DNA from: a virus
Taxonomy: Duplodnaviria; Caudoviricetes
Length of the DNA stretch: 64,000 nucleotides
Virus record (IMG/VR): IMGVR_UViG_3300033463_000114
Coordinates: 451 to 64,450 of that record
Direction: 5' to 3' (one strand)
Made by a program: the position numbers and the translations under genes. Under the pieces are notes generated by a model. The model saw only the letters and a program-made list of their open reading frames with translations, was not told the DNA's origin and did not search any database. This document shows positions 31,165 through 52,273 of the stretch, piece after piece (position 1 is the first letter of the stretch; each line of letters begins with the position of its first letter).

Positions 31165-34100
31165 TTATTTCCCGAGAATCCGCAAGACCTCCGCCTGCAA
31201 TCGCAGACGTTTCTCGTGCGCCTGCTTCACCTCGTCGTCTGTTAGCGGGACGTTCTTCTGAACCCACTCACCTCTGTCGTTCTTCTTCATCCCGTTCTCG
31301 CGGTGGCGAAGCCTGTCTATCTGGTCCACTAGTTCGTCAAGGCGCGTCCGCTGAACGGAAAGGTAAGGCATCTTTTCCTTCATCGCCTTTCTGTCCGCTC
31401 CTGCGCCGAGCTTCTTGTACCGCTTCTTCGCGGACCTATACTCCTCTATGGCGTCGAAATATCTTCCCGACGAATCAGGGTATTCCTTCACGACGGACTT
31501 CACCATCGGCATCTGGCTCAACGTCCTGTCGGACACGTCGCCGCTCAACAGCTTCTTCGCGTTGCCGACGGTGTTGACTGCGCCCATGACGTCGCGGCCA
31601 AGACCGCCTGCGAACGTCTCGACCAGAAGCGAAATGTCCTCCGGTGCGAGGTTGATGAGCCCGGGCTTCAACTTGTCGCCGCCAGTGACGTCGTTCAAGA
31701 CCTGCGCGACCTTCTTCACGATCGGCGACGTGCTGTCCTTGCCGTTGTACGCAAGAGGAGCATTGTCATCGAACGACATCTTTCTACGTCTTTCGCCCCG
31801 CCAGTTCTTGCCTGTGGCAAGCTGACCCATAGTGTCAAGCGCAGACGGAAGCAATGTTTGAGCGAGGTTGTGCCAGTCGGAGCCTGTGAATCTTTGTCCA
31901 CCGACGATCCCAGCCGCCTCGCCTTCAAGCGCCTCTGCAATCGCCATTGTCGCGTCGCCCCAGCTCGTGTCGCCGAGCGAAGCCTCCGTGATCTTTGTCG
32001 CCATGTACGGTATTACGGCGTCGAGGCCGCGCATCTTCAGTAGCTGCAATTCGGCCTTGTTGCCGAGCGGTATGCCTATCGACGTCTGCTTGTAGTAGTC
32101 AGGTGCGTTCCTCGCGTTGCGCCCGCCGTCGTTCTCCCCGTTCTCGTCGTCGTCCTTCCCGCCGACGTAATGTCTGTACATCGCGGCGAGCGATGCGGCA
32201 AGCGCTAACGTCACAGCCATCTGGATGCCGTGTTTGTCGCGCAGCGACTGGAAGTTCCGCTTCAAGCCCTGCACGTTCGCGTTGTAGTACATGTACAAGC
32301 TCCCTATGACGGGCGCGTATGCCCCGCGCCTGTTGAAGTTCGTCGTTCCCTCTCGTGCGAACCGCACCGCGTCGGCCACGCTCACGCCGCTGTCGCGCAA
32401 CGCGCTGAATATCGCGGCGCGGGTGTTCAGCTCCGCGATCTCGTTCATCGTCGAGTTGAACCTGCCGATGCTTGAGAAGAGCCGCATTGTCATCTCTGGC
32501 TTCCACGTGCCGAGCAAGCTCTGCTTGAACGACCTTGCCTCTCGTTGGTAACGGGCGAGGTTGTCCTTGAGAACCTTGCTCTCCTCCGCATATCCGTGTG
32601 CAAGCACGCCGCCCTTTATCTGTCCGCCTGCGTCGATGAACTCCTTGAACCGCGTTCCCGGCGTCAGCTTTCCGTCGACGATCCAATCCTTCACGTACTT
32701 CCTTCCGGTGAACGTGGCCGCGTGCATCTTCGCCGCTATTTTAGTTCCATCGCGGATACCGTACCTCGCGGACAATGCGCGCCACGCCTCGTTGCGGTCG
32801 TTTATCACGTTGCTGAACAGGAACGACGGCGACGCGGAGGTGTTCATCCGAGACAAATACCCGGTGAACTTCGGGATGTACGTGTACCGCAGCCAATCCG
32901 GCACCTTGGCCATGTTCGTCTCGTTTATCTCCTTCGCGATGGCAAGCCCCCTGCCGTTCGCGCCGGGGTTGAAGCGGATTACGTAGAGGCGCGACTGCTC
33001 CTCGAACTTTCCGGTCGGCTTTCCTTTCTTGTCAAGCAGCTCGACTCTCTCGGGCCGCTTGAACAGGACGAGGTTGCTCTGGTTCGACGCGAGCTGCATG
33101 TCGCCGCCAATTCTCGCCTTCGTGCCGTCTGCAAACGTGGCCGCGAACTCCGTGCCGCCGTGCTTCACGACCTCCGCCGGGACGATCTCCGCGACGCGGT
33201 ATTCCGTCCGCGTCGATTTCGTCTTCGGGTCGGTGATCTGCACGGAGTTGAGCCCCTTCGACTCCAAAAAGTCGACCCAGTTCGCTGCGACGTTGCCGGT
33301 CATGTTCTTGGCCGCGCCCTGTATGCCCTGCCCGGCCTGAACGAACGCGAACGTGAGCGGCGAGTCTGCGATGTTGTCCGCGCCGCGTCCTTTGGACGTG
33401 ATGAACTCGTTGCGCTTCATGCCGGCGGTGGATGAATTGAACCGCTCCTCCAGAGAGTTTCCGGCCGTCACGTCCGTCTTCAGCGGCACGTAGTGCTTCC
33501 ACCTGTTCGCGTAGAAGTCGTACTGGTCTTGCGAGAGGCGCCCGGATTCAAGCCTCTGCCGGAGGTCGTCCTGCACGACGTCATGGACGATTTTCTCGAT
33601 GGAAGTGAGCGCCGACAGATTATTGCGCACTTCCGACGACGCAAGGAACTTGCCCGCCCATTCCGTGCTGACGCCGGCGCCCTCCGCGTAGGTCGGCGTC
33701 CACGCGTCGCCCCTGCGCGTGGCGATGGTCCTGTTGCGCTCCTCGGCGTGCAACGCGAGAAGGTACTTGTCTACAAGCTCTTCAGATATGCCGTTGTCCG
33801 CCATGATGCGCGAAATCTTATCATATCTTTTCTGTAGGATGTGGTTGTGCTTCTGCACGTAGCCGTTCAACTTGTCCATCATCTGGTCGACGTTCACGGT
33901 CGTCTTGCTCCAGTCCGTCTTGCCCGTGACCGGGTTCTTGTGCTGCCGCCAGTCGAGGAAGCCTGTCTTCGGGTCGATAACCTCGCGCGTCGCGCCAGTG
34001 CGGTCAAGTTCTTTGCGGAGGAGGATGCGTGCGTCGTCAAGCCGTTCGCGTGCCTTCTCGCCTCTGGTCACCACGTCGTCCATGAAGTTTGCGCCCGGCG

Positions 34101-37100
34101 CCGCCGGCCCGCGCGCCATGCGGACGGAGGACTCGCCAGCCTCGGCGCCGCGCTCACCGATGAACGCCTTGCGGAGCTTGTTCCCGATTCCCTCCCCGCC
34201 CTGCGTCTCAAGCCTCCCGAGCGTCTTGCCCCCGATCATCGCCTTGTCCAAGAACTCGTTGAACTCGTCCGGCGTCATCTTGTCGATGCCGGAAAGGTCT
34301 GCGCGGTTGAAGCCCATGCGGGACAGGATTCCACGCCACGCGGTCTTGATCGCGTCCCACGCGCGGTTGTACCACTTCCGCCCCTGCAAGGTCTTGACGT
34401 ACTTCTGCATGGTCTCGGACGGGCGCTCGCGCAGCGCGGCCCATATCTCGTCGCGGAGCGCGGCCTCGTCCGCGTCGGGGTATCGGCTGCGCACCTCGTC
34501 GGCGAGCGGCGTGTCCATCGCGCCGTCTACCGCCTCGTTGATCTTGTCGAGGAGCGCGCGGTTGCCGCGTGCGGCCTCCTGCTCCGCGTAGCGCATGGTC
34601 GCGTGGCCGAACTCGTGGTTGAGGGTCTTCCAGTTCGCGCCGCGGAAGAGCTTGAGCTTGCCGGTGTCGCGGTCGAAGATGCCGAGGACTGTACCGGTGT
34701 CGCGGTCCTTCAACTCCCTGCCTCCGTTCGGGTTGTCCTTCGCGGGGTCGTAGTCCCTGTCGCCTACGTACTCGACGTCCACGCCGCGCACGGCGTTCTT
34801 GAACGCGTCGCCGAGGGCCTTGGCCTGCTCCATCTCGTACCGCTGGCGCAGCGGCTCCGCGTCGTTTGCCTTGCGGGACTTTAGCCACCGCTGGTAGTCG
34901 GCGTCGGCTGCGAACTTGGCGTCGCGGGAGGCGGAGGACTCTGGGGCCAGCTTGGATGCGCGTATTTCTTCTCCCTTTTCAAGAGAATCAAGAGCCTGCT
35001 TTATGTCTGGGTCTGATTCCGCGAGCTCCCTCAACTGGCTCAACTTGACGGTCTGCTTGATTACGCCTTTCTTCGGAACGCGCATGGCTACGGTTATGTC
35101 GTCGCCGTTGCGTTCCACAATCTGAAACTTCCTTTTGCCTGAAAGGCTCCCGCCCTTGCCCGTTGAGCCCTGCCGCGTCCCCTCCGTGCCGGTCGTGTCA
35201 TTGTCGGATTCTTTCGTGAACCCCTTGCCGTACGACTCGCCGGGCTTCAAAGTCCTCCTGTCGTGCGAGCTACCTGAAATCTCGTCTGCAACGTCCTCAA
35301 GCGTCCTTCCGTCCGCTCCGACGTCAACCGTGCCGTCCTTGGTGTCAAGCGATACGGTCTTCCCCCTGCTCCCTCTGCGCCTGTCCGAGCCGTCAAGCTG
35401 CGTGTGGAGCTTCCTCCCTTTCGCGGAACGGTTGAACTTGTCAACGTCCTCCTGCGTGACTGCATCCACTACGGGCTTTATCACTTCCAGCGCTTCGCGC
35501 AGGCGCTTCGCGGCCTCGGCCCTACCCTCGCGCTCCGCCTTCTCCAAGCCTTCGGAAATCTTGCCGTTCAGCGGCACGGCGTCCTTCGGAGACAACTTGC
35601 CGGCCTTCGCCTTCTTCACGGCGTTGTCAACCTGCACGAAGAAATGCGCCATTTCGCTGTCGGTCTTGGCTCGCGCCACCGCGTCGCGGAGGTTCTTCGC
35701 GCTCTCCGAGTCGACGCCAAGCGAGTTCTGCCACTCCGCGTCCGTCACGAGCGGGGTGAAGAACCTGGCGGAGCGGTTGTGCTTCACCTCCGGCGATTCG
35801 GCGATGCCGTTCACGATGGCGTCGGCCTCATCGGGCGTGATCGCGCCCTTGCCGGTGCGGTTGCCGATGGCGGAGGCAATCCGCTCGACGGCTCCGCGCA
35901 GCGTCTTTTTCATATTGCCGTTCTTGTCGCGGAACTGGGAGGCGGGCTGGGTCTGCTCGTCTGCGGTCGGAGTGGTGGTTGTGGTGGCTTCGGGCGTCGC
36001 CTCCTGCGTCGCGGGCGCGGCGGGCGCTGCGTCGGCCTTGGGAGCCGCGTCGGCCTTGGGCGCGGAGTCTGCCTCCGCCTGCGTGCGGAGCTTCGGGGCG
36101 GGCTTGGTTTGAATCTCAGAATCTGTCTGTGTTCCGAATCTCTCGTCCGCAACGCTACGCGTAACTTCTTCAATCGCCTTGATCACATATTCGTCTTTCG
36201 CGCCCTTGTAGTATCTCCCAGACGAAACCTTGTCAGCCAAGGTTTTCAGCGCCTTGTCGTTCAACTTTGATATTGCGTCGCGCCATGTGTTGCGCATTTT
36301 TTCAAGGAAAGAACTTCTCCCAGACGTAGTGAAAAAATGTGCATCAGACTCCATGAACGACACGATGTCTCTAATCGGCCTTTCCAGCTTTGACAAACCG
36401 TTGGACGTATTCAGCTTTGTGGCTGGACGCAATTTGCTCCCCTGCGTCGGCTTCGGCTCTTCCGCCGCGCCGCCTGTCGCGCCGCCAGCCGCCGATTCCG
36501 CGCCATGCACGGGCTCCGCGCTTTGCGGAGGCGTAACCGTGCCCTCCTCGCGCGGCGCGCTTGCAGGGGCGTTTTCCGGCGGTTCCGCGGCGGGCGGTTC
36601 AGCCTGCGATCGCACGCCGTTGGCCAAACGCTTCCGCTCCGCGAGAGTAAGCGTCTCTTTCATGCCCGCCGACGAGATGTCATCCATCGGCACGGTGCGC
36701 GTCTCGACCTTCTCCGGCGCGTAGCGGTTCGCGCCGGGCGTTCTCACCTGCACATCTGCCGTGCCGTCGGCGTTGGCTTTCAGGAACTTGACGCGCTGGC
36801 CGTCGGACGCACCTTTGAGCATCACGCTGTCGCCGCGCTTGAACGCGGGCTTGGCCTCCTCCTTCGCGCCTCCTGTCAATTTTTGACCACCCATGTCAGA
36901 TTTTGACACGGGGTTCTGCGCGACAGGATTCTTTGCGGTCTTACGCGCCGCGCCGATGTTGGGAGAGTCCTCGCGCTCCGGGAGTCCGTCCGTCACTTCC
37001 TCCCCCGTCCAATACACGGTTCCCAGTCCGCCGCCTTCGCCCTTGTTCGGGCGCATGCGCAGCTCCGGGTTCCTGATTATCGTGCCGTCTCCCTTCTTCA

Positions 37101-40029
37101 TCAACGTGACGCCGTTGACCCTGAACTGCTCCCATGCGGGGATGTCTGCGATCCTGCGGCCGGCGGAAGACGATGCGGAATTGCCCAGCGCGGAGCCGAC
37201 GGCCTCTTCTCGCGACGCGAACGGACCGTACAGGTCTAAGTCCTTCTGGATGTAGAATTTCCCGCGGTTGCCTTTCTCGCCGCCCTCAAACAGCTTGGTG
37301 CCTTCCGCGATCTCCTCTCCGGCGCCTTTCAGGATCGGCATGTACCCCGTCAGCTTCTTCGACGACAGGGCCTCGCCTACCTGAACTCCGACTTTTTCGC
37401 CGCCCGGCGCGCCTCCATTCGCAGGTCGTGCCGCTTCTGTCGGCTTCTGTCCTGCTTCCGCTCCCTGTTCGGGTTGCGCTGGTGTTTCATTGGGGACGTT
37501 CCCTGTTTCATTTGTTATCTCCTCGGTTGGTTTCTGTTCTGCCGCCGGCGTTGCCGGACGGAGTTTGTTGTCATTCGGCTGCGCGGACGCCAGTCGGTTG
37601 CCTGCCGCCTGCCTGTCCATGACGTTGCCGCTCTCGTCGAGATCGAACCTCCCGGTGTCGATTCCAACGACCTGCGCGAAACGGTGCCAGTTCTTGCGCT
37701 TCTTCGGCTTGCCTACCGCATCGCACCACGCCTGGAACGCGTCTGAGACAGAACTGGCCGTCTCTCCAGTCGCGGCGGCATCGCCAGACGGTCCAGCCTG
37801 TTCCTGCGGCGGAAGAGTCCTGACGTTCCCGGCGGCTTCCTTCTGCTCCTGCTCGCGCTGGCCCTCGTCCCACAAGTTCTGCGCCTGTTCGTTCGCCTTC
37901 TCCTTCGCCTGCTCCTCTTCAAGTTTCCGCTGGCGCTTCTCGGCGCGCGCCCTGTCGTTCTGCTCCTTGGCAGACCCCTCTGGTGCAGGACTGTCCTTGG
38001 CGCCGGGCTTTCCTTCGCCAACGGCTATCTGATGCTCGAAAAGTCCCCTTGCCTTCTCCAGCGCTTCTTTCAGAGGCAAGTTGCCCATGTCCTTGTCCAC
38101 CATCTCGATGAACTTCCCGACCGACTCATTTGTCAGATTCGGCGAATGGAGCAGGGCGTTGAGGAACTCAACGTCACTGGCGGTCAGGTCCTTGACGTTC
38201 TCAGAGCCGATCCTGTCAATAAGGAACTTCCTCTTCGCGAGCTCGCCTACTGCCGTACCACGCGACAACGACGGCTCGGAACCTCCTTTCTTGCCGCCCG
38301 GTCTAATCTTCGCGGCGTGTATCCCCTTCATCATCAAATGCGCTGGAAGCAATTCAAGCATCTTTTCCATGTTGCCGGGAACCGACACGAAATCCTTGAA
38401 CCAATCCGTGAATTCCTTGTGCTGCTCGCCAGAAGCCTTGTCCATCCCGGCTACGTCGTTCACAAGTTCGGTCAGGTGCGACTTCACGGACATGTCAAGC
38501 AACTGTGCCGCGTTTCCGCCAACGGTCTTCGCGGCGAGGACAGCAGCCTTGTCCGTAGCAGTCTTCGCGCTGCCATTTGCAATTTCGACCACTCTCTTGA
38601 TGTTCTTGCCGGCAGCCTCCTTGCCGGGAATGATTTTCGCTACCTTGTTCAGCTTGTTCCAGATCAGCGCCTCCAACACCGTGCCGCCCGCCGCCTTCAT
38701 CAGCGCTTCGTCGCTGCTGTCTCCTCTTCTCTCGAGGTCGTCGGCCTTGTTGAGTATCTTTTGCATTCCCGTCGCGGCGAACCCCCACGGAGTGAGTTCA
38801 ACGACGTCAGACGGAAGGCTGATCATGCCGCTGGCGATTCTTTCCGCCCCTGTTTCAACATCTCCACTAAGCGTGCGCTCCGCACGTTCTACCGTGTCCA
38901 TGCGCTTGTCGAGCAGTCCAAGTTTTTCAAGTTCGTATTGCCAGAGCGTCCTTGCCTTCTCCTGGTCTACGATTGGAAATCCGAACTGTGTTTTCTCCCC
39001 GGTGTATGCCGCCTCCTGTATGCGCCTGATAGTCTCTTCTGGTATGCCAATGACATGCGCCGCGTTGCCCATCTGAACCGAGTTGCTAAAACTGCCATTT
39101 GCAAGACCTTCGAGCGCGCGCCGTTTCTGGATGTCGAACGTCTTCATTGTGGTCCCGATTCCCGGGACTCTCCTCAGAAGGAACTCCATCACGCCCTCGT
39201 CTCCGCCCTTCGACGCGACGTCCTGCATGTAAAGCCGTCCGATCGTGCCTATTTCGTCCGTAGGCTGTGCGTGCGGGTCTAGAGGAGACGACGGGGCGAC
39301 GCCATGGTCACCAAGCCCCGGCGTCCCATACGAATCCCTCACGAGTTTCCTCATGAGCGGATCGTCGCTGTCTGCACCTTGCCGCGCTTGCGACAAAAGG
39401 TATTCGCTCTTCTCCTCTGGAGAGAACGAACCCGACTCCATAAGCCTTGATTCCGTGGCAAGGCCCTGTTTCCGCGCCCAGTCCTGTGCGATGGCGTTGC
39501 TTCTGGCGTCGCGCTCTTCGCGCTCCCTGTCAAGCCTTGACTCCTCCGTGCCGCGAACGCCTGACGCATATAGTGCGCTCGCGAGCTGGCCGCCGTAATA
39601 CGCCACCTTGTCAGGAGCCATGTCGGGCAGCCCCGCCGACTTCCACGCACGGGCAAGGTTCTCGTTCGCAGCGGCCCTGTTCGCGTCGTAGTCGTCATTC
39701 TGACCTCCGTCAGTCTGAAAACCTGAATCGTCTTGCGTGTTCTGGAAGAATGCGTCTCGGAACATCCTCCCCTGCGACTCGCTGAGGTCGAAATCGTGCG
39801 CTTCTTTTCCGTCGCCATCCCTGAACCTGAACATCGGCTCGGCGTTCTGGACCATGCCTTTGAACTGCTCGACGTCCGCCTCCGGCACGTCGTACATGCC
39901 TCCTGCGCCGTCGCGGAACCTCATAATCGGCTTCGCGGTCGGCACGGACGACCGAAACTCGTCCATCTCGGAGTCTGGGACTTCGTAGTCTACGCCGTCA
40001 GAGTCCCTCATGCGGTTGATTCGCTCCAT
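31165..40029 (-). CDS. 2954-aa internal virion / large polyvalent protein (LPD38-like C-terminus, HExxH zincin-like domain)
   Basis: NHEFGH; YVPLK, TNFNRRG, IGIP and TGGDK...P..I..L..TFAGG C-terminal patterns; last gene of the virion operon. Confidence 0.75.
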   Translation of the reverse strand: MERINRMRDSDGVDYEVPDSEMDEFRSSVPTAKPIMRFRDGAGGMYDVPEADVEQFKGMVQNAEPMFRFRDGDGKEAHDFDLSESQGRMFRDAFFQNTQDDSGFQTDGGQNDDYDANRAAANENLARAWKSAGLPDMAPDKVAYYGGQLASALYASGVRGTEESRLDREREERDARSNAIAQDWARKQGLATESRLMESGSFSPEEKSEYLLSQARQGADSDDPLMRKLVRDSYGTPGLGDHGVAPSSPLDPHAQPTDEIGTIGRLYMQDVASKGGDEGVMEFLLRRVPGIGTTMKTFDIQKRRALEGLANGSFSNSVQMGNAAHVIGIPEETIRRIQEAAYTGEKTQFGFPIVDQEKARTLWQYELEKLGLLDKRMDTVERAERTLSGDVETGAERIASGMISLPSDVVELTPWGFAATGMQKILNKADDLERRGDSSDEALMKAAGGTVLEALIWNKLNKVAKIIPGKEAAGKNIKRVVEIANGSAKTATDKAAVLAAKTVGGNAAQLLDMSVKSHLTELVNDVAGMDKASGEQHKEFTDWFKDFVSVPGNMEKMLELLPAHLMMKGIHAAKIRPGGKKGGSEPSLSRGTAVGELAKRKFLIDRIGSENVKDLTASDVEFLNALLHSPNLTNESVGKFIEMVDKDMGNLPLKEALEKARGLFEHQIAVGEGKPGAKDSPAPEGSAKEQNDRARAEKRQRKLEEEQAKEKANEQAQNLWDEGQREQEQKEAAGNVRTLPPQEQAGPSGDAAATGETASSVSDAFQAWCDAVGKPKKRKNWHRFAQVVGIDTGRFDLDESGNVMDRQAAGNRLASAQPNDNKLRPATPAAEQKPTEEITNETGNVPNETPAQPEQGAEAGQKPTEAARPANGGAPGGEKVGVQVGEALSSKKLTGYMPILKGAGEEIAEGTKLFEGGEKGNRGKFYIQKDLDLYGPFASREEAVGSALGNSASSSAGRRIADIPAWEQFRVNGVTLMKKGDGTIIRNPELRMRPNKGEGGGLGTVYWTGEEVTDGLPEREDSPNIGAARKTAKNPVAQNPVSKSDMGGQKLTGGAKEEAKPAFKRGDSVMLKGASDGQRVKFLKANADGTADVQVRTPGANRYAPEKVETRTVPMDDISSAGMKETLTLAERKRLANGVRSQAEPPAAEPPENAPASAPREEGTVTPPQSAEPVHGAESAAGGATGGAAEEPKPTQGSKLRPATKLNTSNGLSKLERPIRDIVSFMESDAHFFTTSGRSSFLEKMRNTWRDAISKLNDKALKTLADKVSSGRYYKGAKDEYVIKAIEEVTRSVADERFGTQTDSEIQTKPAPKLRTQAEADSAPKADAAPKADAAPAAPATQEATPEATTTTTPTADEQTQPASQFRDKNGNMKKTLRGAVERIASAIGNRTGKGAITPDEADAIVNGIAESPEVKHNRSARFFTPLVTDAEWQNSLGVDSESAKNLRDAVARAKTDSEMAHFFVQVDNAVKKAKAGKLSPKDAVPLNGKISEGLEKAEREGRAEAAKRLREALEVIKPVVDAVTQEDVDKFNRSAKGRKLHTQLDGSDRRRGSRGKTVSLDTKDGTVDVGADGRTLEDVADEISGSSHDRRTLKPGESYGKGFTKESDNDTTGTEGTRQGSTGKGGSLSGKRKFQIVERNGDDITVAMRVPKKGVIKQTVKLSQLRELAESDPDIKQALDSLEKGEEIRASKLAPESSASRDAKFAADADYQRWLKSRKANDAEPLRQRYEMEQAKALGDAFKNAVRGVDVEYVGDRDYDPAKDNPNGGRELKDRDTGTVLGIFDRDTGKLKLFRGANWKTLNHEFGHATMRYAEQEAARGNRALLDKINEAVDGAMDTPLADEVRSRYPDADEAALRDEIWAALRERPSETMQKYVKTLQGRKWYNRAWDAIKTAWRGILSRMGFNRADLSGIDKMTPDEFNEFLDKAMIGGKTLGRLETQGGEGIGNKLRKAFIGERGAEAGESSVRMARGPAAPGANFMDDVVTRGEKARERLDDARILLRKELDRTGATREVIDPKTGFLDWRQHKNPVTGKTDWSKTTVNVDQMMDKLNGYVQKHNHILQKRYDKISRIMADNGISEELVDKYLLALHAEERNRTIATRRGDAWTPTYAEGAGVSTEWAGKFLASSEVRNNLSALTSIEKIVHDVVQDDLRQRLESGRLSQDQYDFYANRWKHYVPLKTDVTAGNSLEERFNSSTAGMKRNEFITSKGRGADNIADSPLTFAFVQAGQGIQGAAKNMTGNVAANWVDFLESKGLNSVQITDPKTKSTRTEYRVAEIVPAEVVKHGGTEFAATFADGTKARIGGDMQLASNQSNLVLFKRPERVELLDKKGKPTGKFEEQSRLYVIRFNPGANGRGLAIAKEINETNMAKVPDWLRYTYIPKFTGYLSRMNTSASPSFLFSNVINDRNEAWRALSARYGIRDGTKIAAKMHAATFTGRKYVKDWIVDGKLTPGTRFKEFIDAGGQIKGGVLAHGYAEESKVLKDNLARYQREARSFKQSLLGTWKPEMTMRLFSSIGRFNSTMNEIAELNTRAAIFSALRDSGVSVADAVRFAREGTTNFNRRGAYAPVIGSLYMYYNANVQGLKRNFQSLRDKHGIQMAVTLALAASLAAMYRHYVGGKDDDENGENDGGRNARNAPDYYKQTSIGIPLGNKAELQLLKMRGLDAVIPYMATKITEASLGDTSWGDATMAIAEALEGEAAGIVGGQRFTGSDWHNLAQTLLPSALDTMGQLATGKNWRGERRRKMSFDDNAPLAYNGKDSTSPIVKKVAQVLNDVTGGDKLKPGLINLAPEDISLLVETFAGGLGRDVMGAVNTVGNAKKLLSGDVSDRTLSQMPMVKSVVKEYPDSSGRYFDAIEEYRSAKKRYKKLGAGADRKAMKEKMPYLSVQRTRLDELVDQIDRLRHRENGMKKNDRGEWVQKNVPLTDDEVKQAHEKRLRLQAEVLRILGK

Positions 40030-42708: not shown

Positions 42709-42873
42709 CTAATTCTCCTTTCCTGCTTTCGCCTCCAGAGCGGCGATCCTCCTCGCAAGCGCCTGGATGTTCTCGTTCAACTTCATAACCACGTCGCGGA
42801 CCTGCGCGTCCGTCAGGTGGTGGAACGGCACGGTCCCGTGCGGGAGTCCGTTTCTGTTCGCCTTTGCAGCCAT
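42709..42873 (-). CDS. Small coiled-coil virion-associated protein (54 aa)
   Basis: GGAGG RBS, TGATG overlap. Confidence 0.55.
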   Translation of the reverse strand: MAAKANRNGLPHGTVPFHHLTDAQVRDVVMKLNENIQALARRIAALEAKAGKEN

Positions 42874-45095
42874 CAGTTCACCTCCGCCATGTTGGTGCCT
42901 ATCGCTACCGTGTCGATCTCGTGCATCGACTTGACCGTAAACCGCACGTACCGCTCCGGCCTCATGCGTGGGAGGCGGCGCCCGTCCTGCGACTGCATGT
43001 GCGTAGTCCCAGTCAACTCGTGGTCGCGCACCGGCAGCGCGTCTGCGACGTCCGGCGACGAATACGTCCGCACCGTAAGGTCGACGGGGTAGCCAGCCGC
43101 GTCCACGCGCGCCGCCACGGGGTCGAATGGGCGCGGAGCCGTGTAGACCTTGCTCGTCCACTCGATCTCCTTGTTTTCAGCTGACCCCTCCCACTCGTAG
43201 ATGGCGTCGTCGGACACGCCAAAACGCGCTTCGTATTCAATGGGCGAATCCAGCGCAAGGACGAACGAGCAAGACACGGCCTCGCTCTTCTTCGTACCAT
43301 TTGCGTACCAGCCGTCAAACACATAATCCTGTTCAAAGCTGGCCACAAGGGTAACGGTCTGGCCTACGGAGAAGTCTGCATACGCGACAGACCCGTCTGT
43401 CGTTTGCACCGCGTTCGTGCCGCCGTTCACCAACACCCTGCCGCGCCCAGCGTAGTTCGCGCTTGCCGTAACGGTCTTCGTGTCCTGCGACTCGGCCACA
43501 AAAGACGGCGTGAGCTTTAGGTTGCCAGTCAGATTCTCGATGTAGTTCTGGTCGAGCGAGTACGGGGTGCTTACGCCGTCTTTGTACCAGCCGCCGAAAC
43601 GATACCCAGTGCTAGGCGTAGCGGAGAACTTGACCTGATACCCGTACACCGTGGCGCCGGGCGCTGGCGTGACCCATTCCGTATCTGACGGAGACTTGCC
43701 AGAATACGACGCCGTTCCGCCAGTCGCAGAACCTACCTGCACCGTGAAAACTACTGGCGTGTACTCCGCAACTGCCATCACGTTGGAGTCTGGCATCGTG
43801 AACGTCGCGACGCCTTCGTCACTCCCTTCCGTGACCTGAACGGGGTCTCCTTCGCCGTCGGTCACCGACCACTCGGAGAACTCGCAAGTCGCGAGGTCGT
43901 CAACTTGCGCGGTGAGCGTGACCGTGTCGTTCTCCAACGCGGGGTTCGGCGTCGCTGAGACGGTAGGCGTCTCGTCGTTCGTGCCGGTCGTAGACACCGT
44001 GATGGTTCGCGGATTGCCCCATACGGCCTCAAGGTATGCGACGCGGTAGTCTCCGTCGCTGTTGTTGCCGAACGGCAAGTCTTCGTCATCATCGAAAATC
44101 GCCGCAATCTGCGCAATGGTAGTCGATCCATCAGCGGGGAGAGTCGCATACGGCTCCTCCTGGCTTGACGATCCGCGCAGCTCCCACCCGACCAACTGCT
44201 CGTCTCCGCTCCGCATCGCTCCGACGTTGCGCCCGACCCAGTAGTCCCCGTCGTCCGACAGCGGGAAGTAGTTCGCACGATACCACGTCGAGCTTCCCGA
44301 AGTCTCATTGCCGCGCTCGATGGCGACTCCGCTGTTCGGAGCCACGGCAGACAGCGCGGTTGTCGCGTCGGACTTGAACACGCGCAAGGTCTTTGATCCT
44401 GCCGCGTCGCCCTTTACCACGCGGAAAGTCCGCTCGACCTCCTGCGCGCCCTCGGAAACCGAATAAGTCGACTTCCAGCGCAGGTAGACGTTGTACTTGT
44501 CGGACGCGGTCTTCTTGCGGAAGTTTGCGACAAGCGCGATGTCCTGCGCGGCGGCATTTTTGGCTATCGTTGCCGTATTGCCGCTGATGGTGACGCCAGA
44601 AGCAGTTGTGTCACCGCTCCACTCGTCGAACACATAACCGACGGCAGGCGTGGCGGTGACCGTCCCAGCGACGCCTATGATGTAGTCACCGCCTGTGGTG
44701 TATTCTGAATAAGCCGTAGCGCTCCACGCTAACGTGCCCATCGCGCTTTGTCCGCTTGCGACAGATGCCGTCCTGGTGTAGCTGTTGGCGGAAACGAGCG
44801 AAATCGCTCCGCCCGGATTCGTCGTGGCGTAATAGCTGCTGCTAACTTTCTCGGATATAATGACTGTCTTTCCAACCATATCAGACCATTTAGTAGTCGA
44901 AGATGTTGGATAGGCCCAAACCGCCCAGCTGTCTTGAGACCCCGCCACCAATGCGTGTTGTTGAACACTGGTTTCCCACGGCGAGCTACGTTTTCCGGTG
45001 AGGGCTGTTGGCTTGTAATACTTGCTACCGGACCTAGATGTCTGGTATGGAGTACCAGACCATTCTACGAGAACCCTGTCAACGGCACTTGACAT
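42873..45095 (-). CDS. Ig-like (InlB B-repeat/Flg_new-like) repeat protein fused to tail nozzle C-terminal fragment
   Basis: Four TA.P..GY.F..W-type repeats; C-terminal IYEWEG..WTSK..RLP..R..RF.V.S motif. Confidence 0.65.
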   Translation of the reverse strand: MSSAVDRVLVEWSGTPYQTSRSGSKYYKPTALTGKRSSPWETSVQQHALVAGSQDSWAVWAYPTSSTTKWSDMVGKTVIISEKVSSSYYATTNPGGAISLVSANSYTRTASVASGQSAMGTLAWSATAYSEYTTGGDYIIGVAGTVTATPAVGYVFDEWSGDTTASGVTISGNTATIAKNAAAQDIALVANFRKKTASDKYNVYLRWKSTYSVSEGAQEVERTFRVVKGDAAGSKTLRVFKSDATTALSAVAPNSGVAIERGNETSGSSTWYRANYFPLSDDGDYWVGRNVGAMRSGDEQLVGWELRGSSSQEEPYATLPADGSTTIAQIAAIFDDDEDLPFGNNSDGDYRVAYLEAVWGNPRTITVSTTGTNDETPTVSATPNPALENDTVTLTAQVDDLATCEFSEWSVTDGEGDPVQVTEGSDEGVATFTMPDSNVMAVAEYTPVVFTVQVGSATGGTASYSGKSPSDTEWVTPAPGATVYGYQVKFSATPSTGYRFGGWYKDGVSTPYSLDQNYIENLTGNLKLTPSFVAESQDTKTVTASANYAGRGRVLVNGGTNAVQTTDGSVAYADFSVGQTVTLVASFEQDYVFDGWYANGTKKSEAVSCSFVLALDSPIEYEARFGVSDDAIYEWEGSAENKEIEWTSKVYTAPRPFDPVAARVDAAGYPVDLTVRTYSSPDVADALPVRDHELTGTTHMQSQDGRRLPRMRPERYVRFTVKSMHEIDTVAIGTNMAEVN

Positions 45096-45096
45096 C

Positions 45097-46557
45097 CTAC
45101 TCACCTCCATCCGTGCGAATCTTCCTCACGAAGTACATCTTGTCCTCGCGGTCGTCAACGCACATGCAGGACGCCCTCTCGTCGTGAGTCGTCACCGCCG
45201 CGACGCTCTCCGAGAGGTCTATCCGCAGCCCGTTCATCCCCTCGAAGAACAGATGGATGCACCCGTCGTGCTGGCCCGCGATGCAAGTCTCGGGGTGGAA
45301 CGACTGCCATTGGTCCTTCGTGAAGATCTTGTCCGTGAGGTTCGCACACACCGTCCCCGCATCGGCAGAGTTCGCGATCACCATGTAGCCCTCGTTCGAC
45401 GCGTAGTACGCCGCGTTCTTGTACACCAGCACAGAGCGCGGGGACACGCAGGCGGCCGGCCCCGCGAGGCGCGCTGCGGTCATCGTCTCTGGCGCCGTGC
45501 CCGACAGCACCCACGGGAACCCGTCCGTCAGCGCGAACACGCTGTTGCTCGTGGTGGCGAGCGCGACGATGTTGTCCTTGACGTCGTAGCGGTACGCGAC
45601 GGGCCAGCTCGTCACGATGCCGATGTCAGAAAACATGACAGTATGAGGAGAGGACGGCGAAAACGCCGCGTAGAACCCGCCGTCGACATAGACGATGCCC
45701 GAGAGGTCGCCGGGGGGAGACTCGATTCCAGGCTCCGCCTCGCCGAGGGTGGCGGGGTAATACTTCAGCTGGAAACCGCCGACCGTCGTAGCGGTTGTCT
45801 TGGACACCTCGGCTAAGAACTGGATTCCGTCCGCCGACTCGGATGTGCCAGCGGCGGTCGCGTAGATGTACACCTTCTCCGCGCCCGTTGGAAGCGTCAT
45901 CTGCCCGAATTGCACGGTGGACCCGTCGTTCAGCGTGAGCGGCTTCGGCGAAACGTCTCCGTATGCCGCGCCGCCGGTCGCGTCGCTTGCGGGAGAAAGG
46001 CCGCTCTCAAGTCCGTATGCGTCAACCCACGACGCGAAGAAATTGACGTAGTAGATCGTCTTGTCCGTGTCGATTGTCTCGCCTGACTTCAGGGAAACTT
46101 CAGGTGCTTCGAGCGGGGTCTTGTTTATCGTCATCCGCTGGATCGCGTTGGACTGCCGCACGAAGAGGTAGACTGCGGGAGAGTTCGGCCACTCGTTGTT
46201 GTCCGCGTCCGTGAACGGCACGCCAGTCTCTCCCGTCACGAACAGGCGGTCGTACTCGTCCGCCGCGAGATTGCCCTGCGCGACGGAGACGATGCCAGGA
46301 AACGCGAGGAAGTCCACCTTGACGCCGTTGTCCGTTGTGTGCTTCCACGGATAGAGCGTCTTCGCGAGGCCGATCTTCGTGAGCCCGTTCTCCATGTAGA
46401 CCGTATGACTCGATGTCATCTTCTTCGGCTCGCGCAGCGGAACGAGCTTCCCGCTCTTCAGCTTCACGTTGCGGGCGCGCACCGCCATCCCGTCCGCGAG
46501 GAGCGACGGATGCAGGCGCGGCTGGATGCCGCCGAACTTGTCCACTCTGATGTTCAC
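45097..46557 (-). CDS. Tail nozzle / tail tubular protein B, N-terminal part
   Basis: GTG start overlapping prior stop; IRVDKFGGIQPRLHP, WP..YRY, CVS.RS motifs. Confidence 0.7.
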   Translation of the reverse strand: MNIRVDKFGGIQPRLHPSLLADGMAVRARNVKLKSGKLVPLREPKKMTSSHTVYMENGLTKIGLAKTLYPWKHTTDNGVKVDFLAFPGIVSVAQGNLAADEYDRLFVTGETGVPFTDADNNEWPNSPAVYLFVRQSNAIQRMTINKTPLEAPEVSLKSGETIDTDKTIYYVNFFASWVDAYGLESGLSPASDATGGAAYGDVSPKPLTLNDGSTVQFGQMTLPTGAEKVYIYATAAGTSESADGIQFLAEVSKTTATTVGGFQLKYYPATLGEAEPGIESPPGDLSGIVYVDGGFYAAFSPSSPHTVMFSDIGIVTSWPVAYRYDVKDNIVALATTSNSVFALTDGFPWVLSGTAPETMTAARLAGPAACVSPRSVLVYKNAAYYASNEGYMVIANSADAGTVCANLTDKIFTKDQWQSFHPETCIAGQHDGCIHLFFEGMNGLRIDLSESVAAVTTHDERASCMCVDDREDKMYFVRKIRTDGGE

Positions 46558-46892
46558 AGCTGCATCAGCGCCTCCGCGCGCGTCCTGAGGTTTTCGGAAA
46601 TCTGAAGGTTCACGGTGTCCGTCATGTCGAGCTGGTAGACTAGGTGCGCGGCGTACTTCACGACCGCCTCCTCGTGGCGCGGGTCGATGCGGACATCCAC
46701 TTCCACGCCGGGAGTCGGAACCTCCTCGTCGAGCAAGCCGCGCGCGTCGTACTTCTCGGACGGGTTGATGTTGCGGAGATGCCGCACGGCGTCGACGAGA
46801 AAGCCGAAGATCGTGCCCTGCGCGAAGCGGAACTGCTCCTGCGTGTCGTTCACGATCGTCCTCACCTTGTTTTCGAGCATGTCGTATGTCAT
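46554..46892 (-). CDS. Head-tail adaptor / tail tubular protein A-like
   Basis: VRTIVND..RF...DA...NP..A.V.Y helical pattern; directly before nozzle. Confidence 0.6.
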   Translation of the reverse strand: MTYDMLENKVRTIVNDTQEQFRFAQGTIFGFLVDAVRHLRNINPSEKYDARGLLDEEVPTPGVEVDVRIDPRHEEAVVKYAAHLVYQLDMTDTVNLQISENLRTRAEALMQL

Positions 46893-49316: not shown

Positions 49317-49970
49317 CTATTTGTCCGGCCCAATCGTGAACGCACCCGTGCCTGCGTTGCGGAAAAGTGCGCCCGAAACGCGGTCGTACATCGCTCCCTC
49401 CGACACGCCGAGTTCGTTCGTGAAGCGAACGGGGATCATGTCTATAACCGCACTTCCAGCATTTGTCATTTTAAATGAGTATAACTTCATCTGAGAAGGA
49501 ACTATTGCCCCGGCCTGGCGATGCGTAGCGAATATGTACATCGTCCTCGTTCCAGCATACTCCGTACTCCATCCCGTAACCGACTGTGACGAACCATTGA
49601 TTACAATAGACGACTTGTCAAACGCGACTGTATACTTCGTGTCCGCTGAATACGAAGGGCGTGGATAAAGAACATTAGAGGTATTTGACCCTGTTGGATA
49701 TACTGGATCAAAAAGACTCCCGTTCCAAAACAGTGCCAATTCTCCGCCGGAGAAAGAGTTTCCATTGCTGGCACCAAAGACGGCTTTGTTTGAAGTCTGA
49801 AGGCCAGCAAAAATAACCTCTATCTTTGTTTCGCCCGTCGCGTAATATCCCGTGTCGATCCATTGCGAACCTTGCGATTGCAGATACTCCACCTCCGCGT
49901 CATAGGGCAGCGGCGGCGTGGGCGCGCCGCGACGCTCGAAGAACTGTCTCGCCGCTGGTCGGAAGCTCAT
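49317..49970 (-). CDS. Receptor-binding protein with lectin/ConA-like domain
   Basis: VEYLQSQGSQWIDTG...DMIPVR...GAMYDRVSG family signature of gut-phage RBPs. Confidence 0.7.
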   Translation of the reverse strand: MSFRPAARQFFERRGAPTPPLPYDAEVEYLQSQGSQWIDTGYYATGETKIEVIFAGLQTSNKAVFGASNGNSFSGGELALFWNGSLFDPVYPTGSNTSNVLYPRPSYSADTKYTVAFDKSSIVINGSSQSVTGWSTEYAGTRTMYIFATHRQAGAIVPSQMKLYSFKMTNAGSAVIDMIPVRFTNELGVSEGAMYDRVSGALFRNAGTGAFTIGPDK

Positions 49971-52273
49971 GTGCCACCTCCCTGCGCGACGATGTTTGCC
50001 TTCTTCAGCGACACATCAAAAATGCCATCATCGGTTTCGGTGAACGAGTAGAGCCACACGCCCGCCTCGTCGGGAACGGGGAAGTCGGTGCCGTCCGTCT
50101 CGTAGGTCAGCGTCTCGCCCGTGGGCGCGGCGAATGTGATTGTCGGCACGGTCGAGCCGCTTATCTCCAGCCGCACGAGGAAGTCGCGCGCATATCCCGG
50201 CACGGCGGCGGGGAGCGTGAGCGTGGTCTCGCCAGTCACCGACACCGCGTTCACCGCGCGGTCGAAGAGGTGGCCGGGGAGTGAGGCGCGCATGGCGGTG
50301 ACAATACCAAACATGCCGCCAGTATCAATATCGACAGACAGCGCAGAAATGGACGTATTGCCAGATGAAAAACTCACGCCATCCACATACAGAATCCAGC
50401 ATCCGTCCTCGAAGATCAAACTTGGATTATCCTCTGCTGACACACCGCTGAACGCCCACTCGCCCGGCGTGACGAGCGCGTAGGGGAGGTCGGACGGCGT
50501 GGCAAAGTCCGACGGCTTCACCCCGCTGTCCGCGAGGTTGCCCTGCGCATTGAGAGCCGCGAGGTTGCCAGCGGCAGACGGCACGGCCTTGTCGGCCTTG
50601 TCCGGCACAGCCGCGATGTTCGCGAGCTGCTGCGCCGTGAGCGCGTCTTGCTTCGCCGCGACCTGCGCCGTCGTGGCATACGGCGTACCGCCGCCGTTCG
50701 GCGCGCCGTCGTTCGTCAACTGCGACGTCTTCGTCGGCGTGATGAGGTGGCGTGACAGTTCAACGCCAGGATTGTTACCCTGCGCCTCTTTCTCCAGACT
50801 GACGCTATCTGCATTGCCACCCAGAAACGCACTAATGGAAATTAAACCGTTAGACAGAGAGGCAAACCATCCGGTCCCGATTTCCGACACCGTGTCCCAC
50901 TCGCACGAAACAAACGTCCACCCATCCGAAATCTCGTCGCAGACCCACTCCGTGAACCCTCCGCGCAGCGCGTCCCCCACCGCCTTCGCGTCAGCCGCCG
51001 CGTCCGAAGTCGTGAGAGTCGCGTCCACGGCGACAAGCCCCTTGCCCGCCTCCTTCTGCACGAAACGACCGTCGGCCGCCGTCTTGTCGTAGTAGTTCGC
51101 TGGGTTGAAGATGTTCGTCAGCGGAATCTCGATGTCCTCAATCCCGGCGTCGGTGTTGAATGAAATCACGAGATTCCCGCCGGATATTTCCACGGAATCC
51201 ACCATTCCGTCCTTGATGAACGCCGTTGCGTCGATCTCGAACAGCACGGTCGTGTCGTGCTTGAACTTGATGCTCTTCGCGTTCGAGTCGTAGACCGCGC
51301 CGTTGACGTACTCCGACAAGTCCTGATGCGCCTGCACCGCCGTGTCGGCCTTGCCGAGGCTGTCCTTCACGGCTTGCGCGAGGTCGCTCTTCGGTATGCC
51401 GCCCTGCGGCTTGTCGTATTTTGCCGTCCACGCCGTCTTCTGCGTCGCCGTGACGTGAATGCCCGTGTTGCCGACATGCTCCGTCACACCGTCTGCAACC
51501 TCGTCAATCGCGGCCTTCACGCCTCTGCTCTTCACCGGATTGTCGCTTTCTGCCGTCGGTATCGCGTCGAACGTCAGCGCGTTCTGCTTCGTCGCGCCCA
51601 TCGCGGAGATTGCGGCGTTCATCTGCGCAGCAGAGACTTCGCCATCAAATAAATCAACAACTGTATCGGTCGTATCGTCTCCGTCGTTCAGCGTGATTGT
51701 CACGCCGTTCTTCGACACCCCGCTAACCACCTTGCCGGTAAACGGTACGGCAGTCAGCTTCATTCCGTTCAACTTCGCAGTCCATCCCGTGACCAACTCC
51801 GTCCAGTCGTCAATCTTCTTCGGCCACTTGTCCAAATCGTACGGAGTCGTGTCGCCGATGCGCTCCGGCCAATACTCCACCTCGTATCTGTCGCGGAAGT
51901 AGAGCGTCCTCGGGTCGTCGGTATCGCCCAGCACGAACATCACCGGCACGCGCAGCATGTGCCGCGCCGCGGCGACCATCCGCGTCGTGTTGAGGTTCAG
52001 CTCGCAGTAGAGGTCGTTCGCGTCATCCGTCGCGGGGGCCCACGCGTCTGCATCCTCGTCCTCCTCCAGCGCCTCCTCCGGCCGAGGAAACACCGCGAGC
52101 GTACGCCCCGTCACGAGGTCGAGCACGCGCAGCGTCAGGTTCGCGCCATTGTCCGTGCCAATCCACTCCGCGCCGCCATTTATGGTGACGGCGACATGCT
52201 CGCCGGCGGCGATCGTTCCCTTGAACCTCGCCGTCTTGTCTGAAACCTTTGGTGTTATCGTAAGTTCCGTCAT
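49967..52273 (-). CDS. Tail fibre protein
   Basis: Fibre modules (LTFDAIPT..SDNPVKS.GV, H..N..IHVT, DATLT....AADAKAVGD); Thr/Ala-rich. Confidence 0.75.
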   Translation of the reverse strand: MTELTITPKVSDKTARFKGTIAAGEHVAVTINGGAEWIGTDNGANLTLRVLDLVTGRTLAVFPRPEEALEEDEDADAWAPATDDANDLYCELNLNTTRMVAAARHMLRVPVMFVLGDTDDPRTLYFRDRYEVEYWPERIGDTTPYDLDKWPKKIDDWTELVTGWTAKLNGMKLTAVPFTGKVVSGVSKNGVTITLNDGDDTTDTVVDLFDGEVSAAQMNAAISAMGATKQNALTFDAIPTAESDNPVKSRGVKAAIDEVADGVTEHVGNTGIHVTATQKTAWTAKYDKPQGGIPKSDLAQAVKDSLGKADTAVQAHQDLSEYVNGAVYDSNAKSIKFKHDTTVLFEIDATAFIKDGMVDSVEISGGNLVISFNTDAGIEDIEIPLTNIFNPANYYDKTAADGRFVQKEAGKGLVAVDATLTTSDAAADAKAVGDALRGGFTEWVCDEISDGWTFVSCEWDTVSEIGTGWFASLSNGLISISAFLGGNADSVSLEKEAQGNNPGVELSRHLITPTKTSQLTNDGAPNGGGTPYATTAQVAAKQDALTAQQLANIAAVPDKADKAVPSAAGNLAALNAQGNLADSGVKPSDFATPSDLPYALVTPGEWAFSGVSAEDNPSLIFEDGCWILYVDGVSFSSGNTSISALSVDIDTGGMFGIVTAMRASLPGHLFDRAVNAVSVTGETTLTLPAAVPGYARDFLVRLEISGSTVPTITFAAPTGETLTYETDGTDFPVPDEAGVWLYSFTETDDGIFDVSLKKANIVAQGGGT

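Follow-up and report, generated by a model that had tools for sequence, protein, structure and literature searches.

The question raised by this locus is whether two adjacent phage genes can encode one tail nozzle between them, and what the long array of beta-sandwich domains in the second gene would then be. The locus lies in a 64,000-nucleotide (nt) stretch of DNA (the window), which covers nearly all of an IMG/VR virus record of 64,450 bp that has direct terminal repeats and is rated complete. The record represents an uncultured short-tailed phage from cattle gut, with its late genes on the minus strand. The first gene, open reading frame 1 (ORF1; 45097..46557, minus strand), starts with GTG, ends with TAG and encodes 486 amino acids (aa). 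Its matches to PHROG 511, to chain A of PDB entry 8JOV (8JOV_A) and to gp61 of Burkholderia phage JC1 mark it as a candidate nozzle base chain. The second gene, ORF2 (42873..45095, minus strand), encodes 740 aa from the ATG at 45095. From its sequence, Pfam and PHROG matches and a structural model it is a putative nozzle arm chain, in which a variable array of beta-sandwiches is followed by a conserved nozzle C-terminal piece.

An earlier note on this DNA had described the locus as a nozzle gene split in two, with an immunoglobulin-like (Ig-like) adhesin fused ahead of its C-terminal piece. We consider it probable that a two-chain podophage nozzle is encoded here, ORF1 forming the body, the end of ORF2 completing it and the Ig-like array serving as a lateral arm.

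The nozzle profile is divided between ORF1 and ORF2

ORF1 matched positions 320-754 of the 862 positions of PHROG 511 (E 1.9e-64). When PDB sequences were searched with ORF1, the sole match was 8JOV_A (E 3.6e-21), the 577-aa nozzle protein of Ralstonia phage GP4, of which the entry contains six chains. JC1 gp61 could be aligned to ORF1 over residues 4-422 with 28% identity. Among deposited phages ORF1 matched 263 records (Burkholderia Lessievirus, Klebsiella Lastavirus, Shiga toxin (Stx) phages, Ralstonia phages and others), and at least 80% of its length was covered in 262 of them; identity was at most 29.5% among the matches listed. The single-chain nozzle genes of deposited phages encode 580-583 aa and match PHROG 511 from position 319 to 861 in one stretch. 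ORF1 stops at about position 757 with the C-terminal end ...DDREDKMYFVRKIRTDGGE, followed by TAG at 45099-45097, and is thus not a full-length nozzle gene. Judged from these alignments, ORF1 is the N-terminal four-fifths of a nozzle of the GP4/Bcep22/Stx-phage type, comprising the predicted N-terminal platform strands, beta-propeller and tip region and ending before the C-terminal domain. Its N-terminus is kept and has many invariant columns. A longer, TTG-started frame reaching to 46908 was rejected as an arginine-rich artefact that overlaps the 112-aa gene upstream.

The remaining part of the profile was found at the end of ORF2. The last 120 aa of ORF2 matched PHROG 511 positions 750-858 (E 2.6e-6), and when the whole genome was scanned with PHROG 511, only two places responded, ORF1 (positions 316-757) and the ORF2 tail (positions 750-859, E 1.7e-7), which abut in the profile. 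The segment concerned, residues 628-740 (42876..43214, minus strand; hereafter the C-piece), consists of the strand IYEWEG and a jelly-roll-like beta-sandwich, as judged from PHROG 511, hidden Markov model (HMM) and fold matches. A profile of the C-piece found a single copy in the complete genome. Since one profile falls into two abutting pieces and the genome holds no other copy, a nozzle made of two chains is the reading that we favour.

The break could be located on a single-chain nozzle. In the 580-aa JC1 gp61, the alignment to the end of ORF1 runs as far as residue 422 (..GKLYL), and the similarity to ORF2 sets in at residue 428 (IYEWDALDSENEILTWRSK...); in pairwise BLAST residues 428-453 (IYEWDALDSENEILTWRSKQYVVQKP) align to ORF2 residues 632-656. 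The statement in the earlier note that single-chain nozzles run from a D.LY motif directly into IY.W.G..W.SK thus agrees with the JC1 sequence. In a multiple alignment of C-termini the similarity (W.SK, RLP, E.EV, ..G(T/S)...) extends to the last residues. An HMM built from C-pieces of the split family only, without single-chain sequences, had 8JOV_A as its sole match among PDB sequences (E 6.4e-6, residues 423-462 and 538-575). A phmmer search of PDB sequences with a single C-piece gave no nozzle match, only a chance hit to S-adenosylhomocysteine hydrolase at E 0.46; a profile was therefore needed. By these sequence comparisons the last ~113 aa of ORF2 and the C-terminus of intact nozzles are homologous (PHROG 511 positions 750-859; GP4 8JOV_A residues ~422-575).

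Folded alone, the C-piece was predicted as a self-contained beta-sandwich with a mean predicted local distance difference test (pLDDT) score of 71. The model was compared with 48,161 PDB chains by VIA-align. 8JOV_A ranked first with a middling Z-score of 7.7 (root-mean-square deviation (rmsd) 4.5, 95 residues aligned, chain residues 422-575), followed by the tail hub of phage Pa223 with Z 6.4 (rmsd 2.5, 87 aligned, chain residues 413-507); the fold matches also included the nozzles of SU10 and VP1, with their C-terminal ends. Foldseek E-values for this model were all above 0.05, and only the ranking and the VIA-align Z-scores were used. In Pa223 residues 2-46 and 403-512 together form the apical insertion domain, which follows immediately on the fibre attachment loop and binds the head-to-tail adaptor rings (10.1101/2025.06.11.659172). 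According to the model, the C-piece corresponds to this apical or platform-C domain, which binds the adaptor ring in solved nozzles, and for that reason the arm most likely emerges at the nozzle's top and side and not at the tail tip. Two details of the earlier note have to be changed accordingly. It had placed the adhesin at the tail tip, where the match to the Pa223 domain (N-terminal ~45 plus C-terminal ~110 residues) points to the adaptor end. It had also spoken of beta-propeller complementation: the C-piece is mainly a separate beta-sandwich, and at most its leading strand IYEWEG could extend a sheet of ORF1.

The self-contained fold of the C-piece could also be taken to mean that ORF1 is a complete short nozzle and that ORF2 is an independent fibre, whose nozzle-derived C-terminal sandwich docks elsewhere, on the adaptor, collar or capsid. 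Sandwich domains of this kind do act as docking modules in many phage proteins. We nevertheless regard this as improbable. The chain break falls within ~5 residues of the point where single chains continue, and ORF1 has retained, in highly conserved form, the N-terminal segment that co-forms this domain in Pa223. Moreover, the two genes are always adjacent and coupled and diverge in step, and the complete genome contains one copy only of the C-piece.

The break is genuine and conserved in relatives

Between the TAG of ORF1 and the ATG of ORF2 (45095-45093) there is a single base (45096). A Shine-Dalgarno sequence for ORF2, GGAGGTGA (45100..45107, minus strand), could be read within the last codons of ORF1. 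A stop-N-ATG junction with an internal Shine-Dalgarno site is a classic arrangement for translational coupling. ORF2 stops at 42875-42873, its C-terminal end reading ...DDAIYEWEG...WTSK...RRLP...MAEVN. The coordinates of both genes, the ORF1 stop, the 1-nt gap, the ribosome-binding site of ORF2 and these C-terminal motifs had all been given correctly in the earlier note, as had, by implication, the GTG start of ORF1 at 46557.

In a metagenome-assembled genome (MAG) a 1-nt offset is what an indel error would leave behind, and the split might be an assembly or sequencing frameshift or a decaying pseudogene. This explanation is effectively refuted. Contigs from two runs of the probable source sample cover the junction without differences, and 45047-45197 is spanned by a contig of an independent bovine-gut study that differs by one substitution and has no indel, so that position 45095 is crossed without indels in both. 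The same junction, GGAGGTGAGTAGGATG, is present in the closest viral relative (locus L004, ORF1 89% identical). In all, the same break was found in six relatives (L004, L006-L009 and L013; ORF1 46-89% identical), with TAG or TAA stops and spacings of 1-15 nt. The sequence GGAGG in the ORF1 tail, a stop codon and an ATG 1-15 nt later were seen in L004, L006, L007, L008 and L009; in L013 the arrangement follows from gene calls. Four distant loci from MAG collections (ORF1 46-50% identical) have ORF2s of 826-1,465 aa ending in the C-piece. Independent contigs free of indels and a break that is conserved in relatives down to 46% identity, with differing stops and spacing, exclude an error; both parts are also strongly conserved.

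ORF2 lies in the +1 frame relative to ORF1 in five of the six loci (L006 has it in the same frame), and upstream of the ORF1 stop this frame stays open for some distance. In principle, +1 frameshifting or stop bypass at GAG-TAG-G could thus yield one fused nozzle chain of ~1,230 aa, in which the Ig-like array would be an internal insertion. The Shine-Dalgarno-like GGAGG just before the stop is reminiscent of the prfB +1 frameshift site. Against such a product, which we consider very unlikely, stands the fact that every locus has its own ATG 1-15 nt past the stop together with a ribosome-binding site. Spacing and stop codon vary, L006 combining an in-frame ORF2 with TAA and a 15-nt spacer; the slip from GAG to AGU would be unfavourable; two genes were called by independent gene callers; and no fused form was present among 175 C-piece proteins of up to 2,628 aa.

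Homologues of ORF1 form at least 248 clusters in a 90%-identity database. Of these, 120 were listed, with lengths of about 455-550 aa; each of the 120 ends with ..D.(M/L)Y(F/Y)V(R/K) and 2-18 further residues, and a C-piece is present in none of them. The C-piece occurs in at least 222 clusters of a 50%-identity library; the 150 listed are proteins of 91-2,628 aa, in which it stands at the C-terminus. The part resembling ORF1 was found in none of the 175 C-piece proteins fetched. Flg_new_2 (PF18998) was detected in all 52 arm proteins tested. Neither a fused single chain bearing the insert nor a convincing insert-free split was found among the 175 C-piece proteins and the 120 ORF1-like proteins. 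Short C-piece proteins (91-300 aa) were considered as stand-alone C-pieces or insert-free splits and rejected, since they start inside a B-repeat and look like truncated gene calls. The longest protein, P0050 (2,628 aa, '15 stretches', E 4e-35), was also discarded as spurious: it is made up of 15 identical copies of an acidic 163-aa repeat, and each copy gives a weak match to 40 profile positions. P0050 illustrates the trap of repeat-inflated E-values, in which weak repeat matches are summed.

A tblastn search of 50,697 deposited phage genomes with the whole of ORF2 gave no match at E 1e-5; at that sensitivity the split clade seems therefore to be absent from deposited phages.

A variable array precedes the conserved C-piece

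The ~627 aa ahead of the C-piece form an array of the InlB-B-repeat (Flg_new_2) type. PF18998 matched ORF2 with E 1.4e-19 and 70.3 bits, above the gathering cut-off of 23.6, whereas PF09479 (Flg_new) scored 25.7, just below its cut-off of 27. Flg_new_2 gave four stretches at a lax cut-off (two at 1e-3), which together with the weak Flg_new match bears out the four InlB-B/Flg_new-like repeats of the earlier note. An AlphaFold2 model of ORF2, made from a 52-sequence alignment, had a mean pLDDT of 78. Residues 1-75 were disordered (pLDDT <50); beta-sandwich domains were predicted at ~110-197, ~300-370, 371-447, 448-537 and 538-627, the last three with pLDDT 90-97; residues 630-637 (DDAIYEWE) were of low confidence and 640-740 formed a compact beta domain.

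From these data four parts were distinguished in front of the C-piece. Residues 1-108 (44772..45095, minus strand) are a hypervariable N-terminal tip with no confident fold and lower GC content. Residues 109-197 (44505..44771, minus strand) are the first InlB B-repeat (Flg_new_2) domain, with the best PF18998 stretch at 121-195 and beta strands of pLDDT 82-94. The middle region, residues 198-370 (43986..44504, minus strand), is partly beta, has no family match and is of mixed pLDDT, falling below 50 at 278-288; it possibly holds further divergent B-repeat-like domains, and an Atlas feature search with residues 198-372 pointed weakly to Flg_new_2 clusters (score 0.87, a lead only). Residues 371-627 (43215..43985, minus strand) are three tandem beta-sandwich (Flg_new/Flg_new_2-like) domains modelled with confidence (pLDDT ~90-97), with a Pfam Flg_new stretch at 482-523 and internal repeat similarity. 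With the whole 740-aa model as query, Foldseek gave nothing but generic tandem Ig-like arrays (SpyCEP, pilins, GhpA, titin) at a template modelling score of ~0.1, which is uninformative on function.

Conservation falls steeply from the C-terminus to the N-terminus of ORF2. Comparison with the closest relatives gave identities of 88-93% for the C-piece, 37-66% for the arm domains and ~15% (13-20%) for the tip, and in L004, at 89% identity of ORF1, the tip has been replaced outright by a different B-repeat domain. The GC content at third codon positions (GC3) decreases in the same direction, from 0.85 in ORF1 and the C-piece to 0.75 in the array, then 0.67, and 0.49 in the first 72 codons. Over 44700-45099 (ORF2 codons 1-130) the overall GC falls to 0.52, compared with a window mean of 0.61; the low-GC 5' end may be either a recently acquired tip cassette of lower GC or an untranslated stretch. 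A gradient of rate and composition such as this is the pattern shown by a host-interaction module that can be exchanged while its structural anchor stays fixed, here with the variable end N-terminal.

Two proteins of the C-piece family, P0060 and P0066 (2,117 and 2,200 aa), carry 9-10 Flg_new and 2-3 Flg_new_2 repeats before the same C-piece. With so many more repeats in these proteins, arm length varies about three-fold within the clade.

Proposed organization of the nozzle

In the model that we favour, ORF1 would make the nozzle body, and the last ~113 residues of ORF2 would supply the C-terminal beta-sandwich, which in single-chain nozzles (GP4, JC1, SopranoGao, Itty13) comes directly after the D.LY strand. 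The C-piece would pack against the highly conserved first ~45 residues of ORF1 and so complete the apical (platform) domain under the adaptor ring, and the IYEWEG segment, disordered when modelled alone, may pair with the last ORF1 strand. The stop-N-ATG junction with its embedded ribosome-binding site would couple translation and lead to 1:1 production, with six ORF1:ORF2 heterodimers per tail. In each ORF2, ~627 aa of tandem InlB-B-repeat-type domains would stand out sideways as one single-chain arm of reversed polarity, with a conserved C-terminal anchor and a hypervariable N-terminal tip. The arm is most likely a host-surface-binding module, for a receptor or a glycan, that is exchanged between phages. 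Physical complementation of the chains, their stoichiometry, the position of the arm on the tail and its ligand are points that we infer from sequence and from analogy with solved nozzles.

A further-reaching proposal, which we judge only a little less likely to be right than wrong, is that in this large podophage clade of gut and rumen, all of it uncultured, the non-covalent fibre dock has been replaced by six monomeric (not trimeric) InlB-B-repeat arms. These would be the primary receptor-binding proteins, anchored C-terminally by a donated nozzle domain and binding with the N-terminal tip, and host range would be swapped by recombination upstream of the indispensable ~113-aa anchor.

Several observations weigh against the two-chain model. 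As fold matches, those of the C-piece are middling (Z 7.7 and 6.4), jelly-roll sandwiches being common, and its structural prediction has a mean pLDDT of only 71; the matches therefore back the sequence evidence and do not replace it. The database gene call for the window's contig starts ORF2 at Met73 (668 aa), and codons 1-72, with their GC3 of 0.49, are without the typical coding signature. Because of the strong ribosome-binding site at ATG 45095, the start right after ORF1 in all relatives and the lack of a ribosome-binding site before Met73, ATG 45095 is favoured, the exact start not being certain. Were Met73 the true start, coupling would have been lost in this particular genome. Evidence on the host is weak: the relatives were binned, as phage-sized or short contigs, with Kiritimatiellae, Lentisphaerae and Verrucomicrobiota MAGs of rumen and gut and with two Firmicute bins. 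Finally, the Pfam descriptions of Flg_new and InlB B-repeats present them as scaffold-like domains without a defined ligand.

This last point, together with the generic Ig-like surface arrays returned by Foldseek, allows the architecture to be as described and the arm to be something other than a receptor-binding protein: a decoration or a weak glycan- or mucus-adherence module, roles that have been proposed for Ig-like domains of other phages, or a scaffold docking other fibres. Primary host recognition would then reside in other genes, for example 49967-52273 or 49317-49970; genes upstream of the nozzle module do have tail-protein PHROG matches, and the equivalent chain of phage A1002, described below, is a docking rope for separate fibre dimers. 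We hold this to be unlikely, if less so than the other alternatives. A scaffold for conserved partners is expected to be conserved, whereas very fast divergence, tip replacement at 89% ORF1 identity and a tip of foreign composition are what host-range determinants usually show. The statement of the earlier note that the arm is an adhesin or binds mucus was, however, too strong, for it rests on domain type and evolutionary rate only.

Neighbouring genes and related phages

A 112-aa gene (46554..46892, minus strand), taken from the ORF list and the sequence, lies directly upstream of ORF1. Since its TGA overlaps the GTG start of ORF1 (GTGA), the chain of translational coupling probably extends upstream into this gene. 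In the relative L013, a rumen contig whose genes were called independently, the equivalent position is taken by a gene of 111 aa. L013 further contains a 470-aa gene, an 826-aa Flg_new gene 2 bases later, genes of 55, 374 and 580 aa and a gene for a giant LPD38 protein, which is the gene order of the window. In the window a gene for a giant 2,954-aa virion protein (31165-40029, minus strand) is located downstream of the nozzle module; its counterpart in L013 (14971 onwards) carries Pfam LPD38, and the gene is syntenic with those for the DarB-like/PLxRFG giant proteins of Lessievirus and Lastavirus. Nine neighbouring late proteins of the window gave no Pfam match.

The most conserved motif of ORF1, AYRYDVKDNIVAL.., is encoded at 45519-45606 (residues ~317-346). 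In the runs of the source sample several short divergent contigs with loose ends on both sides pile up at this place, with a summed depth of 53 versus 15. This pile-up suggests that several related phages with the same nozzle core share one bovine-gut sample. None of the sequencing runs listed for this phage was of RNA.

Contigs of 56.8-67.6 kb (L006, L007 and L012) were found in Lentisphaerae or 'uncultured bacterium' bins, and L005, L008 and L009 are also contigs of the clade of whole-phage size in MAG bins of the Planctomycetes-Verrucomicrobia-Chlamydiae (PVC) superphylum. The co-occurrence of the relatives with MAGs reflects binning, not integration. The PVC-superphylum bins could be a clue to the host, or else an artefact of binning caused by similar GC.

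Comparison with known systems

Single-chain nozzles of the GP4/Bcep22/Stx type (GP4 8JOV_A, phi24B gp57, JC1 gp61 and Klebsiella phage SopranoGao gp12; PHROG 511) are homologous to both ORF1 and the C-piece and occupy the same place in the late operon, between fibre-like genes and the genes for virion and giant (LPD38/DarB-like) proteins. Their hexameric nozzle role was established by electron cryomicroscopy (cryo-EM) for GP4 and phi24B, whose gp57 is 29% identical to the GP4 nozzle (bioRxiv 10.64898/2026.04.10.717836). Whereas these nozzles consist of one polypeptide of ~577-583 aa, here there are two ORFs, broken between the D.LY and IYEW strands. Unlike in the single chains, ~627 aa of beta-sandwich domains stand before the C-piece, and the C-piece is without ~75 residues that GP4 has between positions 463 and 537. 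The tail hub gp59 of Pseudomonas phage Pa223 (PDB 9NWI), residues 413-507 of which superpose on the C-piece, consists of one chain, is without detectable sequence similarity and carries its fibres non-covalently on a loop.

The closest parallel in organization is the Pseudomonas podophage A1002, whose nozzle was shown by cryo-EM to be made up of gp42 (398 aa), the nozzle base, and gp39 (620 aa), the nozzle rope (PLoS Biol November 2026, PMC13730344). The truncated base keeps platform-N, propeller and tip, the C-terminal ~150 aa of gp39 supply propeller-C and platform-C, and the N-terminal part of gp39 is an extended host-facing appendage ending in an Ig-like domain; 'platform' is the name used there for the part equivalent to the Pa223 apical domain (PMC13730344). 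As far as can be judged from the published description, the logic and the topological break are the same as in our case. By sequence, this phage, too, appears to have a truncated base chain and a second chain with the missing platform part at its C-terminus, and complementation here is predicted from homology. The two systems differ in several respects. No sequence relationship came to light, GP4 being the sole PDB sequence matched by ORF1. In A1002 fibre genes lie between the two genes and the rope gene precedes the base gene, whereas ORF1 and ORF2 are neighbours, coupled, and in the order base then arm. The appendage of A1002, a rope of ~300 A, docks 11 separate fibre dimers, whereas here a tandem InlB-B-repeat array is covalently attached; and the nozzle belongs to another lineage, the GP4 type of PHROG 511. 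Pseudomonas phage Itty13 was considered as a split form like that of A1002 and ruled out, its nozzle being a single 583-aa chain.

If our model holds, this would be a second, independent and much more widespread natural two-chain nozzle, in a lineage other than that of A1002. The ~113-aa C-terminal anchor would mark the host-interaction protein across a clade of uncultured rumen and gut phages, and could thus be of use for annotation, for predicting host range and for designing chimeric arms in laboratory phage-host systems. The locus would also illustrate how a structural fold cut at the fibre-dock position turns a domain of that fold into an attachment plug.

A different solution was described in early 2026 for Xanthomonas phage PhiXacm4-11, in which six gp30:gp31 heterodimers build one nozzle (bioRxiv 10.64898/2026.02.16.706137). 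It has the canonical platform, propeller, fibre-dock and tip domains and, like the arrangement proposed here, additional beta-sandwich domains that protrude radially. Its nozzle is of the T7 type, however, and is split between the tip and nozzle parts in a permutation-like manner, and its extra domains are four small decorations and not a long variable arm. With A1002 gp42/gp39 and PhiXacm4-11 gp30:gp31 published in 2026, the principle of the two-chain nozzle is already in print and is not the new way of adding binding domains for which the earlier note had taken it. What the present locus adds is another lineage, adjacent and coupled genes, a covalent arm and hundreds of protein clusters from uncultured phages.

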